Shown here one piece after another: positions 9,372 to 63,999 of a stretch of DNA of 64,000 nt. The stretch comes from Thermoanaerobaculia bacterium (GTDB lineage Bacteria; Acidobacteriota; Thermoanaerobaculia; Gp7-AA8). The DNA lies in NCBI GenBank assembly GCA_036375075.1, contig DASUSN010000052.1:26195-90194 (forward strand). Reading direction: 5' to 3'. The notes below the pieces were generated by a model. It had not been told where the DNA came from, made no database searches, and saw only the letters and a list, made by a program, of their open reading frames with translations. How positions within the stretch are numbered: position 1 is the stretch's first letter; each line of letters begins with the position of its first letter. Both the position numbers and the translations under genes were made by a program.

Positions 9372-9390
9372 CGGGGGCGCGAATCCTAGC

Positions 9391-10980: not shown

Positions 10981-10982
10981 TT

Positions 10983-12278: not shown

Positions 12279-12300
12279 TGGACTTAAGGGGCAGAATAAC

Positions 12301-13575: not shown

Positions 13576-13586
13576 CCGAATCCGAC

Positions 13587-15407: not shown

Positions 15408-15428
15408 AGTGCTATAACCCCGCCCCGC

Positions 15429-30940: not shown

Positions 30941-31030
30941 GTTCCTCGGTTCCTCGGAGTTCCTCGGGTTCCTCGGAGGAAATGGGCCGTCCGCCGAGGA
31001 ACTCCGAGGAACCGAGGAACTCCGAGGAAC
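30941..31030. repeat. Micro-repeat hairpin, family D (GTTCCTCGG / CCGAGGAAC units)
   Basis: GTTCCTCGGTTCCTCGGAGTTCCTCGGGTTCCTCGGAGG-loop-CCGAGGAACTCCGAGGAACCGAGGAACTCCGAGGAAC. Confidence 0.9.
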
Positions 31031-46524: not shown

Positions 46525-47483
46525 TGGCTCCTTCGGCCACGCTCAGGACAGGCCGTGCGCTCATCACCGGCGGCGCGGGCTTCCTCGGCTCGCACCTCTG
46601 CGAGCTGTTCCTCGCCAACGGCCATGAAGTGGTCTGCATGGACAACTTCATCACCGGCTCGCCGGACAACATCAAGCACCTCTTTGGCCGCGACGGCTTC
46701 ACGTTCATCAAGCAGGACGTGACGAACTACATCCACATCGACGGCCCGCTCGACTACGTCCTGCACTTCGCGTCTCCGGCCAGCCCCATCGACTATCTCG
46801 AGAAGCCCATCCAGACCCTCAAGGTCGGCTCCCTCGGCACCCACAAGACCCTGGGCGTGGCCAAGGACAAAGGCGCGCGCTACCTGCTCGCGTCGACGTC
46901 GGAGACCTACGGCGACCCGCTCGTCCACCCGCAGCGCGAGGACTACTGGGGCAACGTGAACCCGGTCGGCCCGCGCGGCGTGTACGACGAGGCCAAGCGC
47001 TTCGCCGAGGCCATGACCATGGCCTATCACCGCTTCCATGGCGTGGACACCCGCATCGTGCGCATCTTCAACACCTACGGCGAGCGGATGCGCGTCAACG
47101 ACGGCCGCGTCGTCCCCGCCTTCATCTCCCAGGCGCTGCGCAACGAGCCGCTGACGGTCTTCGGCGACGGCTCCCAGACCCGCTCGTTCTGCTACGTCTC
47201 CGACCTCATCGACGGCATCTACCGCCTGCTGATGTCCAACGAGGTGCAGCCGACCAACATCGGCAATCCCGCGGAGATGACCGTCCTCCAGTTCGCGGAA
47301 GTCATCAAGAAGCTCACCGGCACCAGCGCCCCCATCGACTTCCGCCCCCTCCCCGAGGACGACCCCAAGATCCGCCGCCCGGACATCACCAAAGCCCGCA
47401 CCATCCTCGGCTGGGAGCCGCGCGTGCCATTGGAAGAGGGGTTGACGCGGACGATCGACTACTTCCGCACCGTGGTTCAGTAG
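46524..47483 (+). CDS. UDP-glucuronate decarboxylase (UDP-xylose synthase-like SDR)
   Basis: [32 protein letters not shown] junction with ugd. Its TAG stop is the first unit of repeat family C. Confidence 0.85.
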
Positions 47484-47576
47484 GACGAATAGGACGAATA
47501 GGACCTATAGGACAGATAGGACCTATCCGTCCTATCCGTCCTATCCGTCCTATAGGTCCTATACGTCCTACGTCCG
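47481..47576. repeat. Micro-repeat hairpin, family C, longest copy
   Basis: TAGGACGAA TAGGACGAA TAGGACCTA TAGGACAGA TAGGACC / TATCCGTCC x3 TATAGGTCC TATACGTCC (9-nt period). Confidence 0.92.
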
Positions 47577-47664
47577 TCCCATTTCCGGACACTCCCATCC
47601 CAACCACGCACGAACGGCGTGTGAACGAACGGTCTAACCCCTTGCGAACAAACGACAACCCCCA

Positions 47665-47680
47665 TGGCACCGCCGCTGCT
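47665..47680 (+). promoter_or_regulatory. Sigma-54 (-24/-12) promoter upstream of the MacA/ABC/ADOP operon
   Basis: TGGCACcgccgcTGCT with GG-N10-GC spacing exact. Lies 24 nt before ATG 47704. Two sigma-54 activator genes are in the same locus. Confidence 0.6.
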
Positions 47681-47703
47681 CTTACGGCGCGGCAACCACT
47701 GCC

Positions 47704-48951
47704 ATGGACGTCCATAGACCTGATCTCGCCAACGCGCGCCGCCGCAAGCGGCTGATTGCCGTCGCTGTAGTCACCGTCGGCGTCGCCGTCGCCACCTTCG
47801 GCGTGTCGCGCCTCAAACCCGCCGCGCCGGAAGTCGACAGCGGCGGCCTTTTCTTCGATACCGTCAAACGCGGCTCGTTCGTCCGCCAGGTGCGGGGCAC
47901 GGGCGTGCTCGTCCCCGAGCAGGTGCGGTGGATTCCCGCGGCGACCGAGGCGCGCGTCGAGCGCATCCTGGTGCGGCCGGGGAGCGAAGTGAAGGCCGAC
48001 ACCGTCATCCTCGAATTGAGCAACCCCGAGGTCGAGCAGGCGGCGCGCGATGCCGAGCTGCAGCTCGGGTCCGCCGTGGCCGAGCTGCGCCGGCGGGAGA
48101 TCGAGCTGCAGAGCGCGATCCTCAGCCAGCAGGCGCTCGCCGCCGACGTCGAGGCCCAGCGCAGCGACGCCGAGTCGCAGGCGGCCGTCGACGACGAGCT
48201 CGCGCGCAGCGGCCTCACCTCCGAGCTCACCCGCAAGCGCTCCCGCAACCGCGCCGAGCAGCTCCAGAACCGCAGCACCATCGAGAAGCAGCGCCTCGAC
48301 ATCGCCCGCAGGGCCTCCGAGGCCGACATGCTCATGCAGCGGTCGCGCGTCGACCAGCTCCGCGCCCTGCACGGCCTCCGGCAGCAGCAGCGGGGCGCCC
48401 TGCTGGTGCGCGCGGGCATCGACGGCGTCCTCCAGCAGCTTCCGATCGAAGTCGGCCAGCGCGTCGCCGCCGGCACCAACCTCGCGCGCGTCGCGCAGCC
48501 GATGCCGCTGAAGGCCGAGCTGCGCATCGCCGAGACGCAGGCCCGTGACGTCGCCCTCGGACAGCCGGTGACCATCGACACCCGCAACGGGACCGTGGCC
48601 GGACGAGTGACGCGCGTCGATCCCGCCGTACAGAACGGGACCATCGGCGTCGACGTCGGCTTCGACGGCGCGCTGCCCCGCGGCGCGCGCCCCGACCTCA
48701 CCGTCGACGGCGTCATCGAGCTCGAGCGCCTCGAGAACGTCCTCTACACCGGCCGCCCGGTGCAGGGCACCGACGGCGCGACGATCGGGCTCTTCAAAGT
48801 CGCCGGCGACGAAGCCATCCAGACCAGCGTCGCCATCGGCCGCACTTCCGTCAGCAGCGTCGAGATCCGTTCCGGCCTCGAGGAAGGGGATCGGGTGATC
48901 CTCTCCGACATGTCGGCGTGGAGCGAGCACCAGCGCATCCGCCTCAAATAG
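47704..48951 (+). CDS. Periplasmic adaptor (HlyD/MacA-type membrane fusion protein)
   Basis: N-terminal TM helix, lipoyl-like VKADTVILELSNPE, long coiled coil, beta-barrel GQPVTIDTRNGTVAGRVTRVDP. Confidence 0.85.
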   Translation: MDVHRPDLANARRRKRLIAVAVVTVGVAVATFGVSRLKPAAPEVDSGGLFFDTVKRGSFVRQVRGTGVLVPEQVRWIPAATEARVERILVRPGSEVKADTVILELSNPEVEQAARDAELQLGSAVAELRRREIELQSAILSQQALAADVEAQRSDAESQAAVDDELARSGLTSELTRKRSRNRAEQLQNRSTIEKQRLDIARRASEADMLMQRSRVDQLRALHGLRQQQRGALLVRAGIDGVLQQLPIEVGQRVAAGTNLARVAQPMPLKAELRIAETQARDVALGQPVTIDTRNGTVAGRVTRVDPAVQNGTIGVDVGFDGALPRGARPDLTVDGVIELERLENVLYTGRPVQGTDGATIGLFKVAGDEAIQTSVAIGRTSVSSVEIRSGLEEGDRVILSDMSAWSEHQRIRLK

Positions 48952-48960
48952 GAGAAACGC

Positions 48961-49692
48961 ATGCCGCCTCTGATTCACCTCGAAGGCCTCACCAAAGTCT
49001 TCTACGCCGACGAGATCGAGACCCACGCGCTCGACGGCGTCCATCTGGACATCGAGAAGGGGGAGTACATCGCCATCGCCGGTCCCTCCGGCTGCGGCAA
49101 GTCCACCCTGCTGGCCATCCTCGGCCTGCTGCACCCGCCGACCGGCGGCCAGTACACGCTGAACGGCACGCCTGTCGCGCAGCTCTCGACGGCGGACCGC
49201 GCGCGCATCCGCAACCGGGAGGTGGGCTTCGTCTTCCAGAGCTTCAACCTCATCGGCGACCTCACCGTCGCCGAGAACGTCGAGCTGCCGCTGACGTACC
49301 GGAAGATGCCCATCGCCGAGCGGCGCAAGCGCGTGACGGAGTCGCTGGAGCGCGTGGGCATGTCCCACCGCATGAAGCACTATCCCGGACAGCTCTCCGG
49401 CGGCCAGCAGCAGCGCGTGGCCGTGGCCCGCGCGATCGTCGGCAGCCCATCGATCGTCCTGGCAGACGAGCCCACCGGCAACCTCGACTCGCGCAACGGC
49501 GAGGCCGTGATGACGCTCATGCGCGAGCTCAATCGCGAGGGCGCGACCATCTGCATGGTCACCCACGACCCGCGCTACGCCAAGCATGCCGACCGCACCG
49601 TGCATCTCTTCGACGGCCGCGTGGTCGAGGAAGAGCGGATGCCGATCGAGGAGCACGAGCTCCGCGAGAGCGGCTTTCACGTGCAGGGATGA
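48961..49692 (+). CDS. ABC transporter ATP-binding protein (MacB/LolD-type NBD), canonical motifs
   Basis: [49 protein letters not shown]. Confidence 0.9.
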
Positions 49693-52028
49693 ACGAGCTC
49701 CGGCACGCTGCCCGCCGCCTGCTGCGCGCGCGCGGCTTCACGCTCGCCGCGATCGCGACGCTCGCCCTCGGCATCGGTGCGACGACGGCGATCGTCACGC
49801 TGGCAAATGCGCTGTTTCTCCAGCCGTTGCCGTATCGCGAAGCCGACCGCCTCGTGCATCTCTGGGAGGTCCGCGCGTCGAAGAACTATGGCCGCTCCGA
49901 GACGTCGTTCCCGAGCTTCGAGGACTGGCGCACGTCGAGCCGCACGGTCGAGATGTTCGCCGGCTACGGCTGGCCGCGCGTCACGCTGCGCGGCAGCGGC
50001 GGCGCGGAACAGTTGCAGGCCGCGCGGGTGAGCGACACGTTCTTCGACGTCCTCGGCACGCGGGCGCAGCTCGGACGGACGTTCGTGCGCGGCGAAGACG
50101 TGCCGAACGGTCCGCGCGTGGCGGTCCTCAGCGACGGATTGTGGCGCCGCCGTTTCGGCTCGGACACGGGCATCGTCGGCCGGGCCATCAACATCGACGG
50201 CACCGCGTATGAGGTGATCGGCGTCCTTCCCGCGACGTTCCACTTCGCGCCGTCGCGCGGCGCCGAGCTGTGGATCCCGCTGCAGCCGGGCGGCTCGATG
50301 CACACCAGTCGCGGGATGCGCTGGGTAAATGTGATCGCCCGATTGCGGCCGGGAGTCACGCCCCAGGCCGCGGACCGCGAGCTCGACACGATCGCCGCGG
50401 AGATTGCCCGGACCCATCCCGACTCGAACGCGGGCGCCAGCGTCGAGGTCGTGCCTCTGCGCGAACAGCTCGTCGGACCGGTACGCGGCCCGGTGGTCCT
50501 CCTCGGCATCGCCGCGCTCTTCGTGCTGCTGATCGCGTGCGTGAACGTCGCCAGCCTCATGATCGGGCGCGTCGCGGCGCGCCGCCACGACGTCGCGGTG
50601 CGCTTCGCTCTCGGCGCGACGCGCGCGAGCGTGGCCCGCTCGCTCGTCGTCGAAGCCCTCGTGCTCTGCGCCGCCGGCGCGGCGGCCGGAGCGGCCGTCG
50701 GCGTGTCGGCGCTGCGCGCGATGGTGATGACCGTGCCGCAGGATCTGCTCGCGCTGATGCCGTACCTGCGCACGCTCGCGGTCGACTCGCGCGTGCTCGC
50801 CGTGGTCTGTCTCGTGGTTGCGGTGTGCGCGGTGCTGATCGGCGTCTGGCCGGCGCTCCGCGCCTCGCGTGAATGGCACCTTGGCACCCGCGGCACCACC
50901 GCGAAGCGCACGCTGCGCTCGGTGCTGGTCGTCGCGGAGATCGCGCTCGCCCTGGTCCTCCTCACCGGCGCCGCGCTGACGCTGCGCAGCCTCGCCGCCC
51001 TCGCCGCCGTCGATCCCGGCTATCGCGCCGAGGGCGTCTTCACGCTGCGCGTGGCGTTCCCGGGCGACCGCTACGACGACGAGGCGAAGCTCATCGCGAT
51101 CCATCGCCGCGTGCTCGACGCCATTCCCGGCGCCGCGATGATCGACAAGCTCCCGTCCCTCGGCGGCGGCACCATCTCGTTCACCACGGCTGCCGATCCG
51201 GAAAAACGCGAGGCGAACATTCGCGGCATCAGCCCGCGGTACTTTGCGGTGATGAGCGTTCCGCTGCTGCGCGGGCGCGACTTCGAGGCGCGCGACCGCG
51301 TCGATTCTCCCCCGGTCGCCATCGTCAACCGGGAGCTCGCGCGCCGCTACCTCGGCACCGAGGATCCGGTGGGGCGCGTGTTGCGGATCGGAGGCACCGA
51401 GCTGCAGGTCGTCGGCGTCGCCGGCGACGAGCGCATCGGCCCCATCGACGAGCCGGTGACGCCCGTGCTCTACGTCCCCCTGAGCCAGAACCCGGACGAC
51501 TCGGTCGCCATCGTCGTCCGGAACGCGGACACGGCCGGCATCGTCCGGACGCTCCAGCAGATCGATCGCGACATCGCGGTCGCAGGCGTCGCGCCGATGA
51601 CCGCGGTCATGGCCTCGTCGCCGGCGATCTTCCTCCGCCGCGCCACCAGTGTCGTCATCGCGGCGTTCGCGTTCGCGTCGCTGCTCCTCGCGCTGGTCGG
51701 CCTCTACGCCGTCATCGCGGAGGCCGTGACGGCGCGCACGCGTGAGATCGCGGTGCGCGTGAGCGTCGGCGCGAAGCCGGGCGCGATCGTCGCGCTCATC
51801 GCGCGCGACGGCGCACGCCTCGGCCTCATCGGCGTCACCATCGGAATCGCCGGAGCCCTGCTGCTGACGCGCTCCATGGAGTCGCTGCTCTTCGGCGTCG
51901 GCGTCCGCGATCCCATCGCCTTCGGCGGCACCGCCGCGCTGCTGCTCCTGACCGCGGTCATCGCGTCGCTGATTCCCGCGGTTCGTGCCGCACGCATCGA
52001 CCCGGCCGTCGCCCTGAGACAGGAGTGA
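49689..52028 (+). CDS. Duplicated FtsX/MacB-type permease (ADOP-type), copy 1
   Basis: 779 aa. Two TM1/periplasmic-domain/FtsX-bundle halves (LIACVNVASLMIGR; AVTARTREIAVRVSVGAKPG). ATGA overlap with the NBD gene. Confidence 0.85.
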   Translation: MNELRHAARRLLRARGFTLAAIATLALGIGATTAIVTLANALFLQPLPYREADRLVHLWEVRASKNYGRSETSFPSFEDWRTSSRTVEMFAGYGWPRVTLRGSGGAEQLQAARVSDTFFDVLGTRAQLGRTFVRGEDVPNGPRVAVLSDGLWRRRFGSDTGIVGRAINIDGTAYEVIGVLPATFHFAPSRGAELWIPLQPGGSMHTSRGMRWVNVIARLRPGVTPQAADRELDTIAAEIARTHPDSNAGASVEVVPLREQLVGPVRGPVVLLGIAALFVLLIACVNVASLMIGRVAARRHDVAVRFALGATRASVARSLVVEALVLCAAGAAAGAAVGVSALRAMVMTVPQDLLALMPYLRTLAVDSRVLAVVCLVVAVCAVLIGVWPALRASREWHLGTRGTTAKRTLRSVLVVAEIALALVLLTGAALTLRSLAALAAVDPGYRAEGVFTLRVAFPGDRYDDEAKLIAIHRRVLDAIPGAAMIDKLPSLGGGTISFTTAADPEKREANIRGISPRYFAVMSVPLLRGRDFEARDRVDSPPVAIVNRELARRYLGTEDPVGRVLRIGGTELQVVGVAGDERIGPIDEPVTPVLYVPLSQNPDDSVAIVVRNADTAGIVRTLQQIDRDIAVAGVAPMTAVMASSPAIFLRRATSVVIAAFAFASLLLALVGLYAVIAEAVTARTREIAVRVSVGAKPGAIVALIARDGARLGLIGVTIGIAGALLLTRSMESLLFGVGVRDPIAFGGTAALLLLTAVIASLIPAVRAARIDPAVALRQE

Positions 52029-52036
52029 GGGAAACC

Positions 52037-54448
52037 ATGCAGGACCTCAAATTCGCAATCCGTAATCTGGCCAAGTCCCCGGGGTACGCGGTGGCCGCCA
52101 TCCTCACCCTGGCCATCGCCATCGGTGCCAACACGTCGATGTTCAGCATCCTCTACGCCGTCGTGCTGCGGCCGCTCGCGTTCCGCGAGCCGGACCGGGT
52201 CGTGCGCGTCTGGGCGACGGACCTTCACAACGACAGCCAGCGCGAAGGCGCGTCCTCCCCCGATCTGCGCGACTGGAAACAGCAGCAGCGTGTCTTCTCC
52301 GCGATGGTGGGCACGGCCAGTGGCATGCTCAACCTCACCGAGCCGAACGCCGACCCCGAGCGGATCGCGACGACCGGCGTCTCGCACGACTACTTCTCCA
52401 TGCTCGGCATGCAGCCGGTCGCGGGGCGCGGCTTCGTCCCGAACGACGACCGCGAAGGCGCCGAGCCGGTGGCGATCGTCAGCGACGCATTCGCGCAGCG
52501 CCGCTTCGGCGCAACGAACGTCACCGGCCGCGGGATCACCCTCGACGGCAAAGCGTACGAGATCGTCGGCGTCATGCCCAAAGACGCCTCCCTCTCGCGC
52601 AGCAGCGGCACCGACGTCTGGCTCCCGTTGACGCCCCTGCTCGCGCCGCTCGCCGAGGTTCGCGGGGTCCACAACGTATACGTCCTCGCGCGCCTCAAAG
52701 ACGGCGTCACGCTCGCCCAGGCGCAGAGCGCGATGGACGTGATCTCCGTACGTCTCGAGAAGCAGTATCCCGAGGACAACAAGGGGCGGGGCGCGTTCGT
52801 CGAGCCGGTGCTCGACTCCATGGTGCGCGACGCGCGCCCGCGGCTCTGGGTCCTCTCCGCGGCCGTGCTCGCGGTGCTGCTGATCGCGTGCATCAACGTC
52901 GCGGGCCTCATGCTCGCCCGCGCCGACACCCGCGCCCGCGAGCTCGCCATCCGCGCGAGCCTCGGCGCGACGCGCGGCCGGATCGTGCGCCAGCTCCTCA
53001 CCGAATCCGTCGCCCTCGCCGCGATCGGCGGCGTCCTCGGCATCGCGCTCGCGTTCTGGATGACGCGCACGGTCCTCGCGCTCGCGCCGGCGCTGCCGCG
53101 CGCGGACGCCATCGGCATCAACGTCCCGGTGCTCGTCTTCGCCGTCCTGGCGACGATGCTCTCCGCCATCCTCTTCGGCATCATCCCGTCGCTCCGCACC
53201 TCGGCCGTGCAGCCCGCGTCGGCGCTCGCCGCCGGGTCGCGCGGCGTCATCCGCGGCACGCGCACCGCGGGACGGGGCGTGCTCGTAGTCGCCGAGGTCG
53301 CGCTCGCGGTCATCCTGGTCATCGGCGCGGGACTGCTGCTCAAGAGCTTCTCGCGCCTCCTGGCCGTCGACGTCGGCCTGCAGACGACCAACATCGTCAC
53401 GTTCTCGATGACCCTGCCGCAGGCGAAGTATCCGCCGCCGTCGCGCGAGCAGTATCCGGACTGGCCGTCCGCGATGAACTTCTACGACCGCCTGCTCGAT
53501 CGCGTCGCCCAGGTGCCGAACGTCACCGGCAGCGCGCTGGCCATGGCCCATCCGCTCGACCCCGGCTTCACGTCGCGGACGCACGTGGTCGGACGCCCGC
53601 AGGGCGACGGGCCGCAGGACGAAGTGCGCATCCGTCCGGTGACGCACGCCTACTTCGCCACCCTCGGCATCCCGCTGCAGCGCGGCCGTCTGCTCACCCG
53701 CGACGATCGCGCGGACACGCCCGCGACGGTCCTGATCAACGAGGCCCTCGTGCGGAAGTACTTCCCGGGCGAAGACCCGGTCGGGAAGCAGCTCGAGTTC
53801 TGGGGCGCGCCGAACACCATCGTCGGCGTCGTGAAAGGGGAGCGCTTCGGCGGCCCGCAGAGCGAGGCCGAGCCCGCGCTGTACGCGCCGCTGTCCCGCC
53901 TTCCGATGAGCAACCTGACGCTGGTCGTGCGCGCGCGCGGCGATGCCGTGTCCGTGACCGCGTCCGTGCGCGCGGCCATCAAGGAGCTCGATCCGGACAT
54001 GGCCCTGTACGACGTCGAGCCGCTGCAGGACACGCTGGAGCGGACCGTCGCCACGCCGAAGCTCCAGGCCGTGCTGATCGCGTCGTTCGGAGCGATCGCG
54101 CTCCTGCTGGCGGCGATCGGCCTGTACGCCCTGATCGCGTATCAGGTCCAGCAGCGCACGAACGAGATCGGCGTCCGCTTGGCCCTCGGCGCCACGCGCG
54201 CGGAGATCGCGAAGCTCGTGCTGGCTCGCGCGGCGACGCTCGCCCTGACCGGCATCGCCATCGGCCTCGCCGGCGCCCTGGCCACGACGCGCTTCCTGAA
54301 GGCCGTGGTCTTCGAGATCAGCACGACCGACCCCGCGATCTACGCCGGCGTGCCCCTGCTCCTCATCGCCATCGCCCTGCTGGCTACATGGATCCCCGTC
54401 CGCCGCGCGACCCGCCTCGACCCGGCCGTCGCCTTACACACAGACTGA
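52037..54448 (+). CDS. Duplicated FtsX/MacB-type permease (ADOP-type), copy 2
   Basis: MQDLKFAIRNLAKSPGYAVAAILTLAIAIGANT, LIACINVAGLMLAR, QVQQRTNEIGVRLALGATRAE. GTG 52025 is an alternative start. Confidence 0.85.
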   Translation: MQDLKFAIRNLAKSPGYAVAAILTLAIAIGANTSMFSILYAVVLRPLAFREPDRVVRVWATDLHNDSQREGASSPDLRDWKQQQRVFSAMVGTASGMLNLTEPNADPERIATTGVSHDYFSMLGMQPVAGRGFVPNDDREGAEPVAIVSDAFAQRRFGATNVTGRGITLDGKAYEIVGVMPKDASLSRSSGTDVWLPLTPLLAPLAEVRGVHNVYVLARLKDGVTLAQAQSAMDVISVRLEKQYPEDNKGRGAFVEPVLDSMVRDARPRLWVLSAAVLAVLLIACINVAGLMLARADTRARELAIRASLGATRGRIVRQLLTESVALAAIGGVLGIALAFWMTRTVLALAPALPRADAIGINVPVLVFAVLATMLSAILFGIIPSLRTSAVQPASALAAGSRGVIRGTRTAGRGVLVVAEVALAVILVIGAGLLLKSFSRLLAVDVGLQTTNIVTFSMTLPQAKYPPPSREQYPDWPSAMNFYDRLLDRVAQVPNVTGSALAMAHPLDPGFTSRTHVVGRPQGDGPQDEVRIRPVTHAYFATLGIPLQRGRLLTRDDRADTPATVLINEALVRKYFPGEDPVGKQLEFWGAPNTIVGVVKGERFGGPQSEAEPALYAPLSRLPMSNLTLVVRARGDAVSVTASVRAAIKELDPDMALYDVEPLQDTLERTVATPKLQAVLIASFGAIALLLAAIGLYALIAYQVQQRTNEIGVRLALGATRAEIAKLVLARAATLALTGIAIGLAGALATTRFLKAVVFEISTTDPAIYAGVPLLLIAIALLATWIPVRRATRLDPAVALHTD

Positions 54449-54455
54449 ATGACGA

Positions 54456-54556
54456 GTTCCTCGGGTTCCTCGGAGTTCCTCGGAGCTCCTCGGAGAAGAG
54501 GAACCTGTCTTCCCTCCCGCCGAGGAACCCGAGGAACTCCGAGGAACCCGAGGAAC
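54456..54556. repeat. Micro-repeat hairpin, family D, between permease genes 2 and 3
   Basis: GTTCCTCGGGTTCCTCGGAGTTCCTCGGAGCTCCTCGGAG-loop-CCGAGGAACCCGAGGAACTCCGAGGAACCCGAGGAAC. Confidence 0.9.
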
Positions 54557-54562
54557 TAACCA

Positions 54563-56953
54563 ATGCGTACGATCAAACGCCTGCTCCGCCAACCCGCCGC
54601 GCCGCTCCTGGCGGTGCTCACCCTGGCCCTTGGGCTCGGGGTCTCCACCGCGCTCTTCACCATCACGCGCGATGTCGTACTGCGGCCGTTCCCGTTCCGC
54701 GGGCAGGAGCGCATCGTCGCCCTCTGGGCGAGCATTCCCGAGCGCAGCGTGCCGCACCTGGAGCTGACGCTCGCGCAGTACGACACCCTGCGCGACAAGG
54801 CGAAGACGCTGGAGCACGTGTCCGTGCTCTCCGCGGCGAACTTCGCGGTCATCGTCAACACGCCCGACCCGGTGAACGTGAAGACGAATTTCGTCACGCG
54901 CTCGTTCTATCCGCTCCTCGGCGGGAAGGCGTTCCGCGGGCGGCTCTTCCTGCCGAGCGACCACAAGCCGGGCATCCCGCCGGTCGCGCTGATCAGCCAT
55001 CGGCTCTGGACGAACCTCTTCGGCGCGAGCGAGCAGGTCGTCGGCAAGCCGATCGACCTCGAAGGCGACAAGGTCACGGTCGTGGGCGTGCTGCCGCCGG
55101 AGCTGAATTTCCCGGTGGGCGCGGACCTGATCCTGCCGATGGAGCCGCTGTTCAACCCCGGCCCCGAGGACCGGCACAACTCGGTGCTGGAGGGCGTGGC
55201 ACGGATGAAGCCGGGCGTCACCCTCGAGCAGGTCCAGGCGGAGCTGAACGTGCTCGCCGATCAGCTCGAGCGGCAATGGCCGGCGCAGTACAAGGGCACC
55301 GAGAACCACGCGCTGCTCCTCGTCGACGAGATCCTCGGCACGACGCGGCCGGCGATGACGACGCTGTTCGTCATGGCCCTGCTCGTCCTGGCCATCGCGA
55401 CGCTGAACGCGGCCGGCATCTTCATCGCCCGCGCCGTGGCGCGCCAGCGCGACACGGCCATCCGCCTGGCCCTCGGCGCCACGCGGGGGGCGCTGCTGCG
55501 CGGCGTGCTCGCCGAAACGCTCGTCGTCGCGCTCACGGCGGCGGCGATCGGGTTCCTGCTGGCGAAGTTCGCCGTAGCGCTCCTCGTGCGCTTCGGCCCG
55601 TCGACCATCCCGCGCCTGCAGCAGGTCACGGTGAGTCCCGCGACGTATGCATTCGCCGCGGCGATGGCGGTCCTCATCGCCGTGGTCTGCGCCCTGCTGG
55701 CGTCGACGCGCACGACCAGCGCGGAGAGCCTGCGCGACAACATGGACCGCGGCTACGCCGCCATGCGCTCGCGCCGCGTCCTGTCGGTCGTGGCCTGCGT
55801 GCAGCTCGGCGTCGCCCTGGTGCTGCTCGTCGGCGCGGCGCTGATGATCCGCAGCTTCCTCACCATCGCCGGCATCGACGCGGGCTTCAGCCGCGAGCAC
55901 GTGCTCACCGCGCACCTGCCGCTCCCCAGCGCCGCCTATGCGGACCCCGCCAAGCGGCGGCAGTTCTTCACCAACGTCGTGGAGCGCGTCCGCAGCGCGC
56001 CGGGGATCCAGGCCGCGGGCGCGGTGCTCATCCGGCCGCTGGAGATCGAGCTGGGCTGGGACTGGACGCACACCGTCGAAGGACAGGATGCCGTCGCGCA
56101 GACGTCGAATCCGATGGCGAACCTGGTCTCGATCACGCCGGGCTACCTCGAGGCGATGGGCGTGCCGCTGATCCGCGGACGGCATTTCGACAGCCGCGAT
56201 CACGACAAGGCCCAGAAGGTCACGATCGTCGGGCGCTCGTTCGCCATGCGTCACTTCGGGACCGTGGACGTCATCGGCAAGCGGGTCAAGGGCGGCAAGC
56301 TCGACTCCAAGCAGCCGTGGCTCACCATCGTCGGCGTCGTCGGCGACGTCCGCTACCGCGGCCTCACCACCGAGAAGCTGGACGTCTACCATCCTTATCT
56401 GCAGAGCGGCTGGACGCCGCAGTACGTCGCGCTGCGCACGACCGGCGATCCCGCCGCCGCGGAAGCGACGCTGCGCTCGGTGGTGCGCGAGCTGGACAAG
56501 ACCGTGCCGGTCTCGGACGTGCGTTCGTCCGCGCAGCTGATTGACGCGAAGCTCGCCGCGCCACGCCTGAACGCGTGGATCCTCGGCACGTTCGCCGCCG
56601 TCGCGCTGCTGCTCTCGATCATCGGCGTCTACGCGGTGCTGGCGTACGCGGTCCGCAACCGCACCACGGAGATGGGCGTCCGCCTGGCCCTCGGCGCGCG
56701 CTCGCACGACCTGCTCGGCCTGGTCATCCGCCACGCGGTGATCCTCTCGGTCGTGGCGACGGTTTGCGGCGCAATCGCGGCCTTCGTGCTCACCCGCTTC
56801 CTCGGCAGCTTCCTCTACGGCGTCTCCCGCGCCGAGCCGTTGACACTGGCCGTCGCCGCGGCCATCGTGATCGCCGCCGCGATCGCCGGCAGCGCGGTTC
56901 CCGCGTGGTCGGCCGCGCGCACGGACCCCATGGTGGCGTTACGCGATGAATGA
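54563..56953 (+). CDS. Duplicated FtsX/MacB-type permease (ADOP-type), copy 3
   Basis: MRTIKRLLRQPAAPLLAVLTLALGLG, LAIATLNAAGIFIAR, AVRNRTTEMGVRLALGARSHD. 796 aa. Confidence 0.85.
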   Translation: MRTIKRLLRQPAAPLLAVLTLALGLGVSTALFTITRDVVLRPFPFRGQERIVALWASIPERSVPHLELTLAQYDTLRDKAKTLEHVSVLSAANFAVIVNTPDPVNVKTNFVTRSFYPLLGGKAFRGRLFLPSDHKPGIPPVALISHRLWTNLFGASEQVVGKPIDLEGDKVTVVGVLPPELNFPVGADLILPMEPLFNPGPEDRHNSVLEGVARMKPGVTLEQVQAELNVLADQLERQWPAQYKGTENHALLLVDEILGTTRPAMTTLFVMALLVLAIATLNAAGIFIARAVARQRDTAIRLALGATRGALLRGVLAETLVVALTAAAIGFLLAKFAVALLVRFGPSTIPRLQQVTVSPATYAFAAAMAVLIAVVCALLASTRTTSAESLRDNMDRGYAAMRSRRVLSVVACVQLGVALVLLVGAALMIRSFLTIAGIDAGFSREHVLTAHLPLPSAAYADPAKRRQFFTNVVERVRSAPGIQAAGAVLIRPLEIELGWDWTHTVEGQDAVAQTSNPMANLVSITPGYLEAMGVPLIRGRHFDSRDHDKAQKVTIVGRSFAMRHFGTVDVIGKRVKGGKLDSKQPWLTIVGVVGDVRYRGLTTEKLDVYHPYLQSGWTPQYVALRTTGDPAAAEATLRSVVRELDKTVPVSDVRSSAQLIDAKLAAPRLNAWILGTFAAVALLLSIIGVYAVLAYAVRNRTTEMGVRLALGARSHDLLGLVIRHAVILSVVATVCGAIAAFVLTRFLGSFLYGVSRAEPLTLAVAAAIVIAAAIAGSAVPAWSAARTDPMVALRDE

Positions 56954-56965
56954 GCCTATGGCGGA

Positions 56966-57076
56966 GTTCCTCGGGTTCCTCGGGTTCCTCGGAGTTCCTC
57001 GGGTTCCTCGGGGGAGGGGGAGGATCACTCCGAGGAACTCCGAGGAACCGAGGAACTCCGAGGAACTCCGAGGAAC
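56966..57076. repeat. Micro-repeat hairpin, family D, between permease 3 and the second NBD gene
   Basis: GTTCCTCGG x5 (with 1-nt variants), loop GGGGAGGGGGAGGATCACT, then CCGAGGAAC x5. Confidence 0.9.
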
Positions 57077-57085
57077 CGTAACCCT

Positions 57086-57748
57086 ATGATCCGCACACAC
57101 AAACTCACCAAATCCATCCCCGTCGGGGGCGGCCGCCTCTTCCTCCTCCGCGACATCGACCTGGCCGTCGACGAGGGCGACTTCGTCTCCATCACCGGGC
57201 CCTCCGGCGCCGGCAAGTCCACGCTCCTGCACATCCTCGGCATGCACGACGCCGACTGGGAAGGGGAGTACACGCTCGACGGCAACGCCGTGCACAAGCT
57301 CTCCGCGAAGCAGCGCGCCGACCTGCAGCGCCGCACCATCGGCTTCGTCTTCCAGAGCTATCACCTCATCGACGACCTCACCGTCGCGGAGAACCTCGAC
57401 GTCCCGCTGCGCTACCGCGACGTCTCCCGGAGCGAGCGGCAGAGCCTCGTCGCCGACGTGCTCGACCGCTTCCGCATCGTCGGCAAGAAGGACCTCTACC
57501 CGTCGCAGCTCTCCGGCGGCCAGCAGCAGCTCGTCGGCGTCGCCCGCGCGGTGATCGCCAACCCGCGGGTCATCCTCGCCGACGAGCCGACCGGCAACCT
57601 CCACTCCGATCAGGCGCGTGAGATCATGGCCCTCTTCCGCGAGCTCAATCGCGCGGGGACGACCATCGTGCAGGTGACGCATTCCGAGGAGAACGCCAGC
57701 TACGGAAATCGCGTCGTGAAACTGCGCGACGGGTGGATGGTGGCGTGA
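57086..57748 (+). CDS. ABC transporter ATP-binding protein (MacB/LolD-type NBD), divergent at signature and D-loop positions
   Basis: [33 protein letters not shown] (Leu where Arg is usual), [11 protein letters not shown] (His where the D-loop Asp is usual), QVTHS. Confidence 0.88.
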
Positions 57749-59100
57749 CGCCCTCCGTCCTCGCGGCCGACGATCAGCCGCAGATCCTCTCCGCATTGCG
57801 CCTCCTGCTGCGCAGCGAAGGTTTCGACATCGAGACCGTCTCCTCGCCCGCGGCCGTCTATCGCGCCGTCGAGGCGAAGACATTCGACGCCGTCCTCATC
57901 GACCTCAACTACGCGCGCGACACGACCAGCGGCGCCGAGGGGTTGGAGTTGCTCGAGCGGCTGCACGCGTACGACGAGCTGCTGCCCGTCGTGGTCATGA
58001 CCGCCTGGGGCTCCGTCGACCTCGCCGTCGCCGCGATGCGCGCCGGCGCGCGCGACTTCGTGCAGAAGCCGTGGGAGAACGAGAAGCTCCTGGCCACGCT
58101 GCGGACGCAGATCGAGCTGGGGCGCGCGCTCCGCAAGGGACAGCGCCTCGAAGCGGAGAACCGCCTCCTGCGCGGCGAGGACAAGCGCCCCACGCTGATC
58201 GCCGAGTCGCGCGCCATGCGTCCCGTCCTGGAGATGATCGAGCGCATCGGCCCCTCGGACGCCAGCGTCCTGATCACCGGCGAGAACGGCACGGGCAAGG
58301 GCGTCGTCGCGCGCGCGCTGCATGCCGTGTCGCGGCGCTCGCCGCGCGCGCTGGTCTCCGTGAACGTCGGGGGGCTGCCCGAGTCGCTCTTCGAGAGCGA
58401 GCTGTTCGGGCACGTGAAGGGCGCGTTCACCGACGCGAAGGCCGACCGCGTCGGCCGCTTCGAGCTCGCCGACGGCGGCACGCTGTTCCTCGACGAGATC
58501 GCGAACGTGCCCCTCGCGCAGCAGGCCAAGCTCCTGCGCGTGCTGGAGACCGGCGAGTTCGAGCGCGTCGGCTCGTCGCGGACCCGGAAGGCGGACGTAC
58601 GGCTGCTCTCCGCGACGAACGCCCGGCTCGACGCCGAGGTCGAGGCGGGGAGGTTCCGCCAGGACCTGTACTTCCGGCTGCGCACCGTCGAAATCACCAT
58701 CCCGCCGCTGCGCGATCGCCGCGACGACATCCCCACGCTCGCCAGCCACTTCCTCGGCATCCACGCCACGCGCTACCGCAAGCACGTCAGCGGCTTCGAG
58801 GAGTCGGCCATGAAGACCCTGCTCTCTCACGACTGGCCCGGGAACGTGCGCGAGCTGGATCACGCCATCGAAGGCGCCGTGCTGATGACCACCGGCACCG
58901 CCATCCGCGCCGCCGACCTCGGCCTCGCCTCCTCCGCTGGCAAGACCCCGCGCATCGAGGACATGAGCATCGAGGAAGTCGAGCAGCTCCTGATCCAGAA
59001 GGCCCTGGCGCGCTACGGCGGCAACGTCAGCCGTGCGGCCGAGGCGCTGGGGTTGTCGCGGAGCGCGTTGTATCGTCGCATCCAGCGATACGGCCTGTGA
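57745..59100 (+). CDS. Sigma-54-dependent response regulator (NtrC family)
   Basis: Receiver domain (DAVLIDLNY), AAA+ [17 protein letters not shown] loop, [10 protein letters not shown]-terminal Fis-type [28 protein letters not shown] overlap with the NBD stop; GTG 57733 is an alternative start. Confidence 0.88.
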
Positions 59101-59108
59101 GTGGCGCC

Positions 59109-59308
59109 GAGTCGTCGAGTCTTCAAGTCGTCGAGTCTTCAAGTCGTCGAGTCTCAAAGTCTCAAAGTCGCAAAGTCGCAAAGCGGGTGACGACGCCCGG
59201 TCCCCTTTGAGACTTTGAGACTTGAGACTTGAGACTTTGCGACTCGACGACTCGACGACTCGACGACTCGGCGACTCGACGACTCGAAGACTCGAAGACT
59301 GTGAGACT
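59109..59308. repeat. Composite 200-nt micro-repeat hairpin, family F (16-nt and 8-nt units)
   Basis: Left arm: GTCGTCGAGTCTTCAA x2.5, GTCTCAAA x2, GTCGCAAA x2. A ~23-nt loop. Right arm: TTTGAGAC/TTGAGAC x4, GACTCGAC x6, GACTCGAA x2. Confidence 0.92.
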
Positions 59309-59316
59309 GTACCCCC

Positions 59317-60630
59317 ATGAGACGCCTCGAGCACCGCGTCGCCGTCGCCGCCGTCGCGTCTCTCGCGCCCATCCTGTTCGTCCTCGCGTGGATGCTCTTC
59401 GCCGAGCCGCGGTCGAGCGCCACGCGCTGGAGTGTGGCCGTGCTGGTGGTCCTCTCGTTCGCCACCCTCATCGCCGTCGTGCGCGCGCAGATCGACTACC
59501 CCCTGCGCACCCTCGCCAACCTGATCTCCGCGCTGCGCGAGGGCGACTACTCCATCTGGGCGCGCAGCTCCAGCCGGCAGGACGCGATGAGCGAGGTCAC
59601 GCGCGAGCTCAACCAGCTCACCCGCGCCCTGCGCAACCGGCGCTTCGGCGAGGTCGAGGCCGCGGCGCTCGTGCGTTCCGTCGTCGAGCACATCGACTCC
59701 GCGATCTTCGCCTTCGACGAGCGCTGGCGGCTGCGCCTCGTGAACCGCGCCGGCGAGCGCCTCCTCGCGCGGCCCGCCCAGCAGCTCTACGGCCGCACCG
59801 CCGGAGACCTCGGCGTCGAGGCCTTCCTCACCGGCGACGACACCCGCACCGCCGAAGTGGTGCTCCCCGGCGGACACGGACGCTTCCGCATCCGCCGCAC
59901 CACCTTTCGCGAGGCCGGCGTGCAGCACGTCCTGCTGTCCATGTCCGACCTCTCCCGCACCCTGCGCGAGGAAGAGCGCCAGGCCTGGCAGCGCATCCTG
60001 CGCGTGCTGTCGCACGAGCTGAACAACTCCCTCGCGCCCATCCGGTCCATCGCCGGCAGCCTCGCGTCCATCCTTTCCCGCGAGCCGCTCCCCGACGGCT
60101 GGCAGGACGACGCCCAGCACGGCCTGGAAGTCATCGGCGAGCGCTCCGCGGGACTGGTGCGCTTCCTCCAGACCTACTCCCAGCTCGCGCGCCTGCCCCA
60201 GCCCACGCTCGCGCCGATGAGCGTCGCCGAGACCGTGCGCCGCGTCGCCGGCCTGGAGACCCGCATCGCCGTCGCCATCCAGCCCGGCCCCGGCGTCACC
60301 CTCCGCGCCGACCGCGACCAGATCGAGCAACTGCTGATCAACCTCGTCCGCAACGGTGCCGACGCCGTCCTCGAGACCGGCGGCGGCGCCGTGACCCTCT
60401 CCTGGACCGCCACCCCCGACGCCGTCGAGATCACCGTCACCGACGAAGGCCCCGGCATCAGCGCCGCCACCAACCTCTTCGTCCCCTTCTTCACCACCAA
60501 AGCCGGCGGCTCCGGCATCGGGTTGACATTAGCCCGCCAGATCGCCGAAGCCCACGACGGCACCCTGACCCTCACCAACCGCCCCGAGCCCGAGCGGGGG
60601 ACGATCGCACGGTTACGCCTCCCCCGGTGA
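59317..60630 (+). CDS. Sensor histidine kinase (two TM helices, HAMP, HisKA, HATPase)
   Basis: H-box LSHELNNSLAPI, N-box LINLVRNGADA, DEGPGI, GGSGIGL. Confidence 0.88.
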   Translation: MRRLEHRVAVAAVASLAPILFVLAWMLFAEPRSSATRWSVAVLVVLSFATLIAVVRAQIDYPLRTLANLISALREGDYSIWARSSSRQDAMSEVTRELNQLTRALRNRRFGEVEAAALVRSVVEHIDSAIFAFDERWRLRLVNRAGERLLARPAQQLYGRTAGDLGVEAFLTGDDTRTAEVVLPGGHGRFRIRRTTFREAGVQHVLLSMSDLSRTLREEERQAWQRILRVLSHELNNSLAPIRSIAGSLASILSREPLPDGWQDDAQHGLEVIGERSAGLVRFLQTYSQLARLPQPTLAPMSVAETVRRVAGLETRIAVAIQPGPGVTLRADRDQIEQLLINLVRNGADAVLETGGGAVTLSWTATPDAVEITVTDEGPGISAATNLFVPFFTTKAGGSGIGLTLARQIAEAHDGTLTLTNRPEPERGTIARLRLPR

Positions 60631-60663
60631 TCTGGAGTGCGGAGGCGACCTCCGCACTCCAGA
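60631..60663. repeat. Palindromic element family A, short-loop copy
   Basis: TCTGGAGTGCGGAGG-cga-CCTCCGCACTCCAGA. Starts 1 nt after the kinase stop. Confidence 0.9.
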
Positions 60664-60674
60664 TGGGGATGCTT

Positions 60675-60775
60675 GTCATCCTGAGCCGCGTAGACGGCGA
60701 AGGACCCCGTGAGTTGTGCGCATCCCGTGCTACCGGCAGGGGATCCTTCGCCGCGCTACGCCGGCTCAGGATGAC
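60675..60775. repeat. Palindromic element family E
   Basis: GTCATCCTGAGCCGCGTAGACGGCGAAGGACCCC...GCCGCGCTACGCCGGCTCAGGATGAC. Followed by TGCGCCCTGCCCC, as at 45119. Confidence 0.9.
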
Positions 60776-60803
60776 AGCGCAATGCGCGCTTGCGCCCTGC
60801 CCC

Positions 60804-62185
<1,382 letters not shown>

Positions 62186-62189
<4 letters not shown>

Positions 62190-63376
62190 GTGCGCTTTGC
62201 CTTCGGCAGGGTGATGCGGAACGCCGCGCCCGGGGCATCGAGCAGCTCCAGGTCGCCGTCGTGGTCGAGCATGATTTTCCTGCAGATCGCCAGTCCGAGC
62301 CCCATCCCTTCGCCGACGGCGCGGGTGGTGGTGTAGGGCTGGAAGAGGCGCGGGCGGATCAAGGGATCGACGCCGGGGCCGTCGTCGGCGACATCGACGT
62401 GCAGCAGCTCGCGCTGTTCCCCGATGCGGAACGACACCCGCGTCGCTCCGGCGAGCGAGGAGTTGTTGCACAGGTTGACCAGCACCTGCCGGAACATCTC
62501 CCGGTCCAGCGAAGCCGTGCAGTCGCAGTCGGTGCGCTCGAGGGTGAGCGTCAGGCTCGGCCACGCGCCGGAGAATGTGCTGATGAACTCATCGAGCACG
62601 TCGCGCACGTCGTCCACCCGGAGCCGCGGCTGTCCGATGCGGCCGAACGACGTGAACTGCCGCGTGAACTCGCGCAGCCGGTCGAGCTCCTCGTGGATGC
62701 TCACCTGCGCCTGCGTGGCCGCGGCGGCGAGCGACGGCTCGCGCGCGGCGACGGTGTTCACGAAGTCGTCCACCTCCAGCCGCGCGGCGGTGAGCGGTGT
62801 CCGGATCTCGTGCGCGTGGCGGCGCGCGGCTTCCTGCCACGCCGCGAGGTGATCGAGGTACTGGATGCGGCGGCGGCTGCGGTCGACCTCGCGGGAGGTC
62901 GCCTCGATCATCGCCGCGATGCGGCCGACCACGTCGCGGCTGCGGTCGCCGATGACGATGTCCGTCTCGCCGCGCCCGAGGGCTTCGAGCGCGCCCTGCA
63001 CAACGGCGAGCCGTCGCTCCCGCCGCGCGCCGGAGACGATCGCCGCGACGAAGAACGCCAGCAGCACCACCGCCACGACGGCGACGAGCGCCCACTCGTA
63101 GCGCCGGGCGATCTCCTCGCGGTTCATGGCCACGATGTCCAGCTTGCGGCCGACCGCCTTGATCTCGTCGAAGCGTTTCCGGTACTCCGTGCCGCGATCG
63201 GGGTCGAGCCGCGAGAGGCGCTTCTGGTCCGCCGACGACTGCTCCAGCAGCCCCCGCACCTCGGACGCCCCGGCGAGGTTGAAGGCGATCAGCGAGACGC
63301 GGCGGATGAAGACGTAGAAGCCGGCCAGCGCGATCGCCGCCGCGAGGAGGAGGACCAGCGCGCGCCGCACCGTCAA
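62186..63376 (-). CDS. Sensor histidine kinase, second copy
   Basis: Two TM helices, H-box AHEIRTPLTAA, N-box LVNLCNNSS, DDGPGV, GMGLGL. TTG 63376 overlaps the upstream stop (TTGA). ATGA overlap with the regulator gene. Confidence 0.82.
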
Positions 63377-63999
63377 GGCGTCACCCGCACCTGCCAGCGC
63401 TGCCGGACGATGGGTCGCCGCTGGATCGACGTCCCGATGAGGAGGTCGAGCACCGAGCCGCTGGCCGTCGCGCGCGGAGTCGGCGCCGCGGACGGCGGCG
63501 CTGCCGGTTGCCGCGCCTCGCCGATGGAGCGGGTGAGCCAGCGCTGCGTCTCCTCCTGTTCTTCCGCCGAGAAGGGCAGCACGTCGATCGCGATCTGCAC
63601 GCGCTCCGTGCCCGCGGCGTTCGCGAGCAGCGGCAGCGTCGTCTCCCGCCACCACGTCTCCAGCTCCGCGAACGATGCCGCCCGCGTCTTCTGCGGCGGC
63701 ACGCCGATGCGCCGCAGCGTCACGAAGTACACCTCGTCCCATGGCTCGAAGCGGATGTCGATGCGCGCGCCGCTCGTCCGCTGGTCCTCGAGCGTGGCGA
63801 CGAGGACGAACGTCGTGGTGAGGCCGCTGCTCAGTTGCTTGCGCACCTCGGGGCCGGAGAGCAGGCCGGCGGGGAGCGTCACGGTGAGCGTCCCGCCGCG
63901 CAGGTGCGCCGCCGGCGGCGTCGCGGCGAACGCCGGCGCGAGCACGCCGGCCGCGATGGCGGCCCCCAGGACGAAGACGCGGCTCAGGCGCTTCGTCAT
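63373..63999 (-). CDS. Secreted/periplasmic protein heading the HK-regulator operon (possibly DUF4390-like)
   Basis: Signal MTKRLSRVFVLGAAIAAGVLAPAFA. 208 aa. Position upstream of an HK/sigma-54 activator pair resembles DUF4390 genes of Proteobacteria. The family call is not verified. Confidence 0.55.
   Translation of the reverse strand: MTKRLSRVFVLGAAIAAGVLAPAFAATPPAAHLRGGTLTVTLPAGLLSGPEVRKQLSSGLTTTFVLVATLEDQRTSGARIDIRFEPWDEVYFVTLRRIGVPPQKTRAASFAELETWWRETTLPLLANAAGTERVQIAIDVLPFSAEEQEETQRWLTRSIGEARQPAAPPSAAPTPRATASGSVLDLLIGTSIQRRPIVRQRWQVRVTP

Follow-up and report, generated by a model that had tools for sequence, protein, structure and literature searches.

The name of the ADOP family of permeases (TIGR03434) includes the word 'orphan', which refers to the absence of an adjacent ATP-binding cassette (ABC) ATPase gene. 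What, then, do ADOP permeases form where such genes do lie beside them? We address this question for a locus at 47.6-60.7 kb of a 64,000-nucleotide stretch of DNA (the window) from contig DASUSN010000052.1 of a Thermoanaerobaculia bacterium. Here, three ADOP genes are found together with genes for an adaptor, two ATPases, a transcriptional regulator and a histidine kinase. We put at roughly 65% the probability that this cassette encodes a MacAB-like type VII ABC system under sigma-54/NtrC control, in which a single adaptor and a single core ATPase serve the fused ADOP permeases, which lack ATPase domains. This figure applies to architecture and regulation; our confidence in a substrate assignment is much lower, with antimicrobial or amphipathic compounds or peptides as the favoured candidates.

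All eight genes of the cassette lie on the plus strand, in a window of high GC content (about 66-72%). The first gene (47704-48951) encodes a HlyD/MacA-type adaptor of 415 aa that matches the Pfam models HlyD_3 and HlyD_D23 above their cut-offs. It is followed by the gene of a MacB/LolD-type ATPase with an ABC_tran domain, NBD1 (for nucleotide-binding domain; 48961-49692, 243 aa), and by three permease genes, ADOP1 (49689-52028, 779 aa), ADOP2 (52025/52037-54448) and ADOP3 (54563-56953, 796 aa). The ADOP2 product has 807 aa if translation begins at a GTG at 52025, which overlaps the stop codon of ADOP1, and 803 aa if it begins at the alternative ATG at 52037. The remaining genes encode a second MacB/LolD-type ATPase with an ABC_tran domain, NBD2 (57086-57748, 220 aa), an NtrC-family sigma-54 activator with receiver, Sigma54_activat and HTH_8 domains (57733-59100, 455 aa), and a histidine kinase with PAS and HATPase_c domains (59317-60630, 437 aa). 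Adjacent genes overlap by 4 nt at the NBD1/ADOP1 and ADOP1/ADOP2 junctions and by 16 nt at the NBD2/regulator junction. An earlier note on this DNA had described the same set of an adaptor, two ATPases, three ADOPs, an NtrC-type activator and a kinase, and was right for all eight genes.

Three fused permeases encoded beside separate ATPases

The whole-protein scores of ADOP1, ADOP2 and ADOP3 against TIGR03434 are 758.2, 872.1 and 746.0 bits, respectively. Since all of these values exceed the curated cut-off of 622.3 bits, the three permeases are members of the ADOP family. Each contains two MacB_PCD and two FtsX domains as defined by Pfam and is predicted to have eight membrane helices, arranged 4+4. 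The MacB-type unit, which has four helices, the first two of them separated by a large periplasmic domain, is thus present twice in each polypeptide. Each half aligns with the membrane and periplasmic domains of MacB, and the nearest solved structures are those of MacB (5lil, 5nik, 5gko) and of the pneumococcal pump Spr0694-0695 (5xu1). Within each protein, the N- and C-terminal halves are 23-27% identical. The three permeases are old paralogues, with 30-34% identity to one another. None of them contains an ABC_tran domain, the ATPases being encoded by separate genes. The word 'orphan' does not describe these permeases, as two ATPase genes lie inside the cassette and this adjacency is kept in relatives.

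Conservation of the cassette and exchange of permeases

Relatives were sampled as 16 genome loci, collected with ADOP2 as the query, and 80 metagenome loci, collected with the adaptor; genes were mapped by tblastn and their contexts annotated with Pfam. The closest loci (59-83% identity) come from metagenome-assembled genomes (MAGs) of Thermoanaerobaculia/Acidobacteriota. The order adaptor-NBD1-(ADOP)n-(NBD2)-regulator-kinase, in which NBD2 is optional and n ranges from 1 to at least 5, is found in about 17 distinct Thermoanaerobaculia/Acidobacteriota loci, mostly Thermoanaerobaculia MAGs. This conserved order bears out the earlier proposal that the genes belong to one system.

Clustering of the permeases at a threshold of at least 50% identity yielded seven orthogroups (P0-P6), which keep a fixed order, vary in presence and occur in at least ten different combinations. 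P0, the ADOP2 type, is a near-universal core; P3 is the ADOP3 type, and P6, the ADOP1 type, is rare. The window carries P6-P0-P3 and lacks P1, P2, P4 and P5. Among the other cassettes with NBD2, the permeases are P0-P5 in L002, P1-P0 in L018, P1-P2-P0 in L010, P1-P0-P3 in L021 and P1-P4-P2-P0-P3 in L006, and there are at least five in L008. P3 is the sole permease of two minimal cassettes, one with NBD2 (L033) and one without it (L020), and L012/L019 carry P2-P0 without NBD2. Arrays of one to at least five permeases are accompanied by one adaptor gene per cassette. Because this one gene serves all the variable arrays, the earlier description of the permeases as swappable is fair at the evolutionary level. 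Between orthogroups, the periplasmic domains are slightly more variable than the membrane and cytoplasmic parts (agreement of 0.485 versus 0.541).

Farther away, most adaptor homologues of about 50% identity from metagenomes of soil, peat and sediment have genes for an NBD1-like ATPase and ADOP-like permeases as neighbours, in the order adaptor-NBD-ADOP or ADOP(s)-NBD-adaptor and usually without a two-component pair. ADOPs with local partners are therefore common. The earlier note had said that permeases of this type usually lack adjacent partners, but metagenomic cassettes of adaptor, ATPase and ADOP are not rare; 'orphan' is unfit for this subset of the family.

Several individual loci showed further features. 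In the distant cassette L042, the gene order is adaptor-NBD1-NBD2-x-ADOP-x-regulator-kinase, where the open reading frames (ORFs) flanking the permease encode 159 aa (13354-13833) and 268 aa (16678-17484) and have no Pfam match. In L005, the closest relative on a long contig (1.97 Mb, ~90% identity), the matches to ADOP3, NBD2, the regulator and the kinase at 12400-18400 are split into several frames, which may reflect frameshift errors of assembly or real pseudogenization. L016, from a Bryobacterales MAG, has a PadR-family gene (8967-9344) directly 5' of an ADOP gene (9348-11984) and no ATPase or adaptor gene within 10 kb. This pair illustrates the orphan arrangement and shows another way in which an ADOP gene may be regulated. 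L015 likewise contains a lone ADOP gene in orphan style.

The two ATPases

NBD1 and NBD2 are 47-49% identical. NBD1, which no complete cassette lacks, has all catalytic motifs of a MacB/LolD-type ATPase intact. NBD2 belongs to a conserved clade of its own, characterized by the D-loop GNLH in place of GNLD and by LSGGQQQL in place of LSGGQQQR, with intact Walker A, Walker B and H-loop motifs. All homologues retrieved in a search with NBD2 were close orthologues from Thermoanaerobaculia, with at least 75% identity.

According to the earlier note, a pseudo-heterodimeric permease would need two ATPases, and the presence of two different ATPase genes fits an asymmetric pair. In the strict form of this model, NBD1 and NBD2 would form an obligatory asymmetric heterodimer, with one ATPase bound to each of the non-identical halves of whichever ADOP is in use. 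The separate clade of NBD2, with its altered D-loop and post-signature residue, is consistent with such a division of labour, as is the preservation of Walker A/B and H-loop motifs in both proteins. In addition, every complete cassette with NBD2 also has NBD1, L033 combines a single permease with both ATPases, and the two ATPase genes adjoin each other in the more distant loci L040, L042 and L044. However, L012/L019, L020, L007 and L070 lack NBD2 and keep NBD1, the permease(s), the regulator and the kinase, and L020 and L033 have the identical single permease type, P3, in the absence and in the presence of NBD2, respectively. The NBD1 proteins of the loci without NBD2 are 83-88% identical to that of the window and display no consistent substitutions. 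When halves and orthogroups were compared, the coupling-helix regions of both ADOP halves were found to be alike, with a generic FtsX motif only. Solved transporters with a fused permease also use one ATPase twice: the type VII transporter YbbAP-TesA contains ATPase, permease and TesA at 2:1:1, with two copies of the same ATPase on a pseudo-symmetric permease (PMC12646458), and BceAB contains two copies of one ATPase per permease (2:1; PMC5985334).

Because NBD2 is missing from intact cassettes and the solved relatives use a single ATPase twice, an obligate NBD1-NBD2 pair is unsupported, and we consider the heterodimer unlikely. Under the reading that we prefer, NBD1 would be the core engine and NBD2 an accessory, which may form a heterodimer with NBD1, serve particular permeases or take part in signalling.

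A candidate enhancer-dependent sigma-54 promoter

A sigma-54 -24/-12 element of the form TGGCAC-N5-CTGC (TGGCACCGCCGCTGC) is located at 47665-47679 on the plus strand and ends 24 nt before the ATG of the adaptor gene. It agrees with the consensus TGGCAC-N5-TTGC at nine of the ten positions scored and has the exact GG-N10-GC spacing. By itself, a single match is not statistically remarkable in this GC-rich window, which contains 26 matches with at most two mismatches, fewer than the 50 expected by chance from shuffled sequence. Comparison with relatives is more informative. A match of 9-10/10 is present at 33 of the 80 adaptor-homologue loci, including every orthologue of at least 59% identity; in the latter, it lies 14-24 nt 5' of the start codon, and the bases of the N5 spacer vary freely. 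In control stretches taken from within the coding sequence of the adaptor, no score exceeded 8/10. Given this conservation at a fixed position relative to the controls, the element is more than a chance match, and phylogenetic footprinting thus supports the earlier identification of a correctly spaced -24/-12 element before the first gene.

Alignment of 23 distinct promoters revealed two further conserved blocks beside the -24/-12 element, with variable flanks and spacer. The distal block (47576-47611, plus strand), about 55-90 nt 5' of the -24 region, is a candidate enhancer, or upstream activating sequence, composed of GTCCCAnnnnCGGAC and ATCCCAnnnnnGCAC in tandem, 21 bp apart. The corresponding pattern TCCCA-N4-5-(C)G-N-AC and the 21-bp spacing of the pair are conserved in the 23 promoters, and the tandem site occurs once in the window. 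A degenerate version of the pattern has 26 matches in the 1.05 Mb of collected loci, 25 of which lie 60-200 nt 5' of an adaptor start codon. These sites would be bound by the regulator encoded in the cassette. The proximal block (TAACnnnnTTGnnA; 47635-47650, plus strand) lies between the upstream site and the promoter and has the form TAAC-N4-TTG-N2-A, with the conserved columns tAA..c.tTG..a. It resembles the consensus site of integration host factor (IHF) and may act as an IHF-like bending site.

Together, the upstream sites, the IHF-like block and the -24/-12 element correspond to the classical layout of an enhancer-dependent sigma-54 promoter, from which we infer binding and dependence on RpoN. 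No other sigma-54-like site with two or fewer mismatches was found in the internal intergenic gaps of the cassette, and scans of 47300-61000 for sigma-70 promoters and intrinsic terminators also returned none.

A rearranged version of this region is found in L007. There, at 6690-6850, the adaptor gene is missing and the region comprising the upstream site, the IHF-like block and the -24/-12 element is joined straight to NBD1. The GC of the -12 element is altered to GG (TGGCATCGCGGTTGG), a divergent gene of the histone-deacetylase family lies on the 5' side, and NBD2 is absent too.

Regulator and kinase

The regulator, which scores 218 bits against Sigma54_activat, contains receiver, AAA+ and Fis-type helix-turn-helix domains. 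The kinase crosses the membrane twice, with helices at residues 10-28 and 39-57 that are connected in all orthologues by a loop of 6-10 residues and followed by a HAMP-like segment, a PAS domain, an H-box (SHELNNSL) and HATPase_c. Both proteins score below the cut-offs of all named NCBIfam equivalogs. The two genes are always the last of the cassette, and the conserved upstream site is found almost only before these adaptor genes, in agreement with the earlier claim that they form a dedicated two-component pair.

With the two helices joined by a loop of no more than ten residues, the kinase has no periplasmic sensor domain, so that its input must come from the membrane, from the cytoplasm or from the transporter. 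The same topology of two helices and a minimal loop is found in BceS-type kinases, which depend on their partner transporter (PMC5985334). The conservation of this topology among the orthologues speaks for a division of the cassette into two units, namely, a pump made of the adaptor, NBD1 and permeases, and a Bce-like sensing unit in which NBD2 and one permease would report flux to the kinase and, through it, to the sigma-54 promoter. The position of NBD2 also fits such a division, since in Thermoanaerobaculia-type cassettes its gene is always directly 5' of the regulator gene and often overlaps it. Nevertheless, kinase and regulator are unchanged in the cassettes that lack NBD2, the presence of NBD2 shows no clean link to any one permease orthogroup, and in L042 NBD2 adjoins NBD1 rather than the regulator. 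Furthermore, the HAMP-like and PAS segments of the kinase could sense cytoplasmic signals directly, which would make the PAS domain an equally good candidate for the sensor. We regard the two-unit arrangement as quite unlikely.

A second NtrC-type activator and histidine kinase (RR2/HK2) are encoded at 60804-63742 on the minus strand, convergent with the cassette. RR2 is 38% identical to the cassette regulator, and an ORF of 208 aa (63373-63999) overlaps the 5' part of the HK2 ORF. This pair was considered as a member of the cassette and rejected. In no relative does RR2/HK2 or the 208-aa ORF show synteny with the ADOP cassette; because no relative has the pair adjoining the cassette, it lies outside the system. 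The earlier note had allowed for control by either of two activators, and only the cassette's own is retained here.

Proposed mechanism and points against it

From the gene content and conserved arrangement, we infer the binding partners, stoichiometry and direction of transport in the following scheme. The ADOPs, each made of two directly fused MacB-like halves with eight helices and two periplasmic domains but without an ATPase domain, would be powered by the separately encoded MacB/LolD-type ATPases, most likely by two copies of NBD1 per permease, and NBD2 would be a second, accessory ATPase. The permeases would be linked to the outer membrane by one MacA/HlyD-like adaptor, which is anchored in the membrane. 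The divergent permease paralogues, gained and lost by individual lineages, would share this adaptor and the ATPase set. Transcription would start at the sigma-54 promoter before the adaptor gene, where the cassette's own NtrC-type regulator, phosphorylated by the kinase that lacks a periplasmic sensor, would activate from the two tandem upstream sites with the help of an IHF-like bend. The transporter would remove antimicrobial or amphipathic compounds or peptides from the periplasm or the outer leaflet of the membrane; an export or envelope-stress function is plausible.

The adaptor scores 51 bits against HlyD_3 (cut-off 22.2) and 43.6 bits against HlyD_D23 (cut-off 30), is weakly similar to MacA (4dk0/4dk1), and contains one N-terminal membrane helix and, as judged by inspection of the sequence, a coiled-coil-like segment of ~125 residues.

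A number of observations weigh against the pump reading or parts of it. The score of the adaptor against TIGR01730, 90.7 bits, is just under the cut-off of 94.9; a search of the protein for the hairpin-tip motif R-x3-L-x6-S found none; and neither the 64-kb window nor the region directly 3' of the cassette in relatives (L098-L100) yielded a TolC-type outer-membrane gene. Nor is the adaptor indispensable in every lineage, because L007 has lost it while retaining the remaining cassette. The sigma-54 contact loop of the regulator reads GAFTDA in 17 of 17 orthologues, not the canonical GAFTGA, a variant that may nonetheless work. The predicted leader is only ~3-14 nt long. At the 47679-47704 junction, and likewise in L004, L010, L012, L023 and L033, there is in most loci no clear Shine-Dalgarno sequence, and sigma-54 transcripts of the adaptor junction would be nearly leaderless. 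Three very stable internal hairpins interrupt the putative operon and could terminate, process, attenuate or segment its transcript. Two of these hairpins consist of GTTCCTCGG units and are located in the ADOP2/ADOP3 gap (54455-54557; minimum free energy (MFE) -82.5 kcal/mol) and in the ADOP3/NBD2 gap (56962-57070; MFE -94.3 kcal/mol); the third, a very long tandem-unit hairpin, separates the regulator and kinase genes (59105-59300; MFE -123.9 kcal/mol). Finally, no feature of the locus identifies a substrate.

As to the hairpins, each is formed by short tandem units followed by their complements, lacks a U-tract and was not called by the terminator scan. The hairpin between ADOP2 and ADOP3 is missing at this junction in several relatives, and in some relatives the genes abut, nearly abut or overlap at hairpin-bearing junctions, at least at ADOP3/NBD2 and ADOP2/ADOP3. 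A repeat family of this kind occurs throughout the window, and the internal hairpins are probably insertions of it that are specific to this genome.

The state of the adaptor and the missing channel gene are also relevant to a different view of the ADOP complexes, in which they are not efflux pumps but mechanotransmission devices similar to LolCDE, FtsEX or YbbAP-TesA, extracting lipids or lipoproteins from the inner membrane or driving a periplasmic partner. Type VII ABC systems do include machines that are not involved in efflux (PMC5985334, PMC12646458). The locus contains no outer-membrane channel gene, the genes downstream of the cassette differ between loci and none encodes such a channel, and L007 manages without an adaptor. 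Envelope genes, namely, those for MlaEFD, PBP1a and UDP-sugar enzymes, lie 5' of the cassette. Against this view, a MacA/HlyD-type adaptor, the type typical of tripartite pumps, is the first gene of nearly every cassette. Moreover, no gene for a hydrolase or a LolA-like partner is conserved in the cassette, and scores against the LolCE and YbbP models are very low. We therefore hold the mechanotransmission view to be very unlikely and retain the inducible MacAB-like envelope pump as the preferred reading.

Hairpin family and other features of the window

Intergenic hairpins of the kind described above recur in the window. Each of them has a series of 7-9 nt tandem units in one arm and the complementary series in the other; the MFE ranges from -57 to -124 kcal/mol, and no U-tract is present. 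The member upstream of the cassette, a TAGGAC-type tandem-unit hairpin at 47484-47574 (MFE -57 kcal/mol), follows a UDP-glucuronate decarboxylase gene; its sequence is not conserved in relatives, and it probably ends or insulates the upstream transcription unit. Further members are located at 10881-10993, 17168-17242, 19015-19119, 20840-20925, 21786-21883 and 30941-31020. Some units recur, such as TAGGACGAA at 17.2 and 47.5 kb and GTTCCTCGG at 30.9, 54.5 and 57.0 kb, and similar runs of units are found 5' of the cassette in the related MAGs L002, L004, L021 and L023. Members of the family may be REP-like stabilizers of mRNA or terminators.

At the end of the cassette, before the convergent RR2 gene, there are two strong hairpins (60631-60780; MFE -118.7 kcal/mol). 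The segment 60671-60780 is a long inverted repeat containing GTCATCCTGAGCCGC...GGCGAAGGA, and a related fragment, CGGCTCAGGATGAGC, lies 5' of the cassette in L002. We take this inverted repeat to resemble a repeat element present in many soil-bacterial assemblies.

The remainder of the window is ordinary chromosome, with genes for SecA, trigger factor, ClpX, Lon and Rho in addition to the envelope genes named above; it does not include rpoN. An Rfam scan found two tRNAs elsewhere in the window and no match in the cassette locus. The genes at 9391-16496, which encode two flavoproteins similar to tryptophan halogenases, an AMP-binding enzyme (minus strand) and two ketoacyl synthases, may represent a small cluster for lipid or secondary-metabolite synthesis. 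ORFs of 895, 496, 293, 428 and 379 aa have a high third-position GC content and no Pfam match at E<=1e-5; they are located at 2080-4767, 27891-29381, 29326-30207 (minus strand) and 34778-37191 (minus strand).

Relation to known systems

The cassette was compared with characterized systems that share some of its parts. With MacAB-TolC, a type VII ABC system known from E. coli and A. actinomycetemcomitans (5nik, 5lil), it has in common the MacB-like permease halves, the MacB/LolD-type ATPases and a membrane-anchored MacA/HlyD-type adaptor as the first component. In contrast to MacB, where the ATPase is fused N-terminally, the cassette ATPases are separate, and the permease halves are fused into a protein with eight helices. 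Several divergent permeases per adaptor, the lack of a nearby TolC gene, and a sigma-54 promoter under NtrC-type two-component control also set the cassette apart from MacAB-TolC.

BceAB-BceRS of Firmicutes likewise combines a fused FtsX-type permease and a separate ATPase with a linked two-component system whose kinase has two helices and nearly no loop (PMC5985334). However, BceB has ten helices and one extracellular domain, whereas an ADOP has eight helices and two periplasmic domains; the Bce regulator is of the OmpR type and acts at ordinary promoters, whereas that of the cassette belongs to the NtrC family; and Bce systems have no adaptor, while the kinase of the cassette possesses additional HAMP-like and PAS segments. 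There is thus precedent for fused permeases that work with a separate ATPase at 2:1 and for two-component systems that co-evolved with them (PMC5985334, PMC12646458).

E. coli YbbAP-TesA (9GE6-9GE8) shares with the cassette a pseudo-symmetric fused permease with two periplasmic domains and a separate ATPase at 2:1 (PMC12646458), but YbbP has ten helices, including two linker helices, and its partner is a periplasmic hydrolase rather than an adaptor. Scores are below the YbbAP equivalog cut-offs: ADOP2 reaches 18.3 of 999 bits on YbbP, and the ATPases reach 205.8 and 164.1 of 336 bits on YbbA. The darobactin exporter DarBCD (NF038007, NF038008, NF038010) also consists of a fused permease of ~777 aa, an adaptor and an ATPase, and it provides the best NCBIfam match of both cassette ATPases. 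The equivalog scores are nevertheless far below cut-off (DarB 22-32 versus 700, DarC 52 versus 450 and DarD 245-250 versus 375 bits), and, unlike DarBCD, the cassette adjoins no genes of darobactin biosynthesis.

ADOP clusters have been noted before. A genomic island of Psychroflexus torquis contains a highly expressed cluster of ~10 ADOP paralogues together with other transporter genes, some with ATP-binding regions (PMC3914696). Compared with TIGR03434 permeases as first described, those of the cassette are no orphans but stand with conserved genes for an adaptor, for ATPases and for a two-component system, behind a sigma-54 promoter. Our literature searches on ADOP/TIGR03434 found the permeases mentioned essentially in the P. 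torquis paper only, in passing and with no function assigned to them, and returned no report of sigma-54/NtrC-type control of a MacB-like system; the main text of a comparative paper on sigma-54 from 2011 does not mention such transporters.

A more speculative reading, which we consider quite improbable, joins several of these threads. The cassette would be a Gram-negative, sigma-54-wired counterpart of the Bce-type flux sensors, in which the kinase reads the working cycle of the ADOP and its ATPase, not a ligand. NBD2 would be a signalling-competent or heterodimerizing ATPase, and the ADOP paralogues would be interchangeable substrate-recognition modules on a shared engine for both pumping and sensing. 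True orphan ADOPs elsewhere might borrow this engine in trans.

ADOP permeases form large paralogous families in Acidobacteria, which are among the most abundant soil bacteria. The cassette makes this 'orphan' family testable, as it offers likely energizing partners, an induction circuit and natural variants reduced to a single permease and either one ATPase or two. Its regulation by sigma-54 and an NtrC-type activator would be unusual for a MacB-like system. If the preferred reading is true, the operation of several fused permeases on one engine of ATPase and adaptor would be a new organization for type VII ABC transporters.

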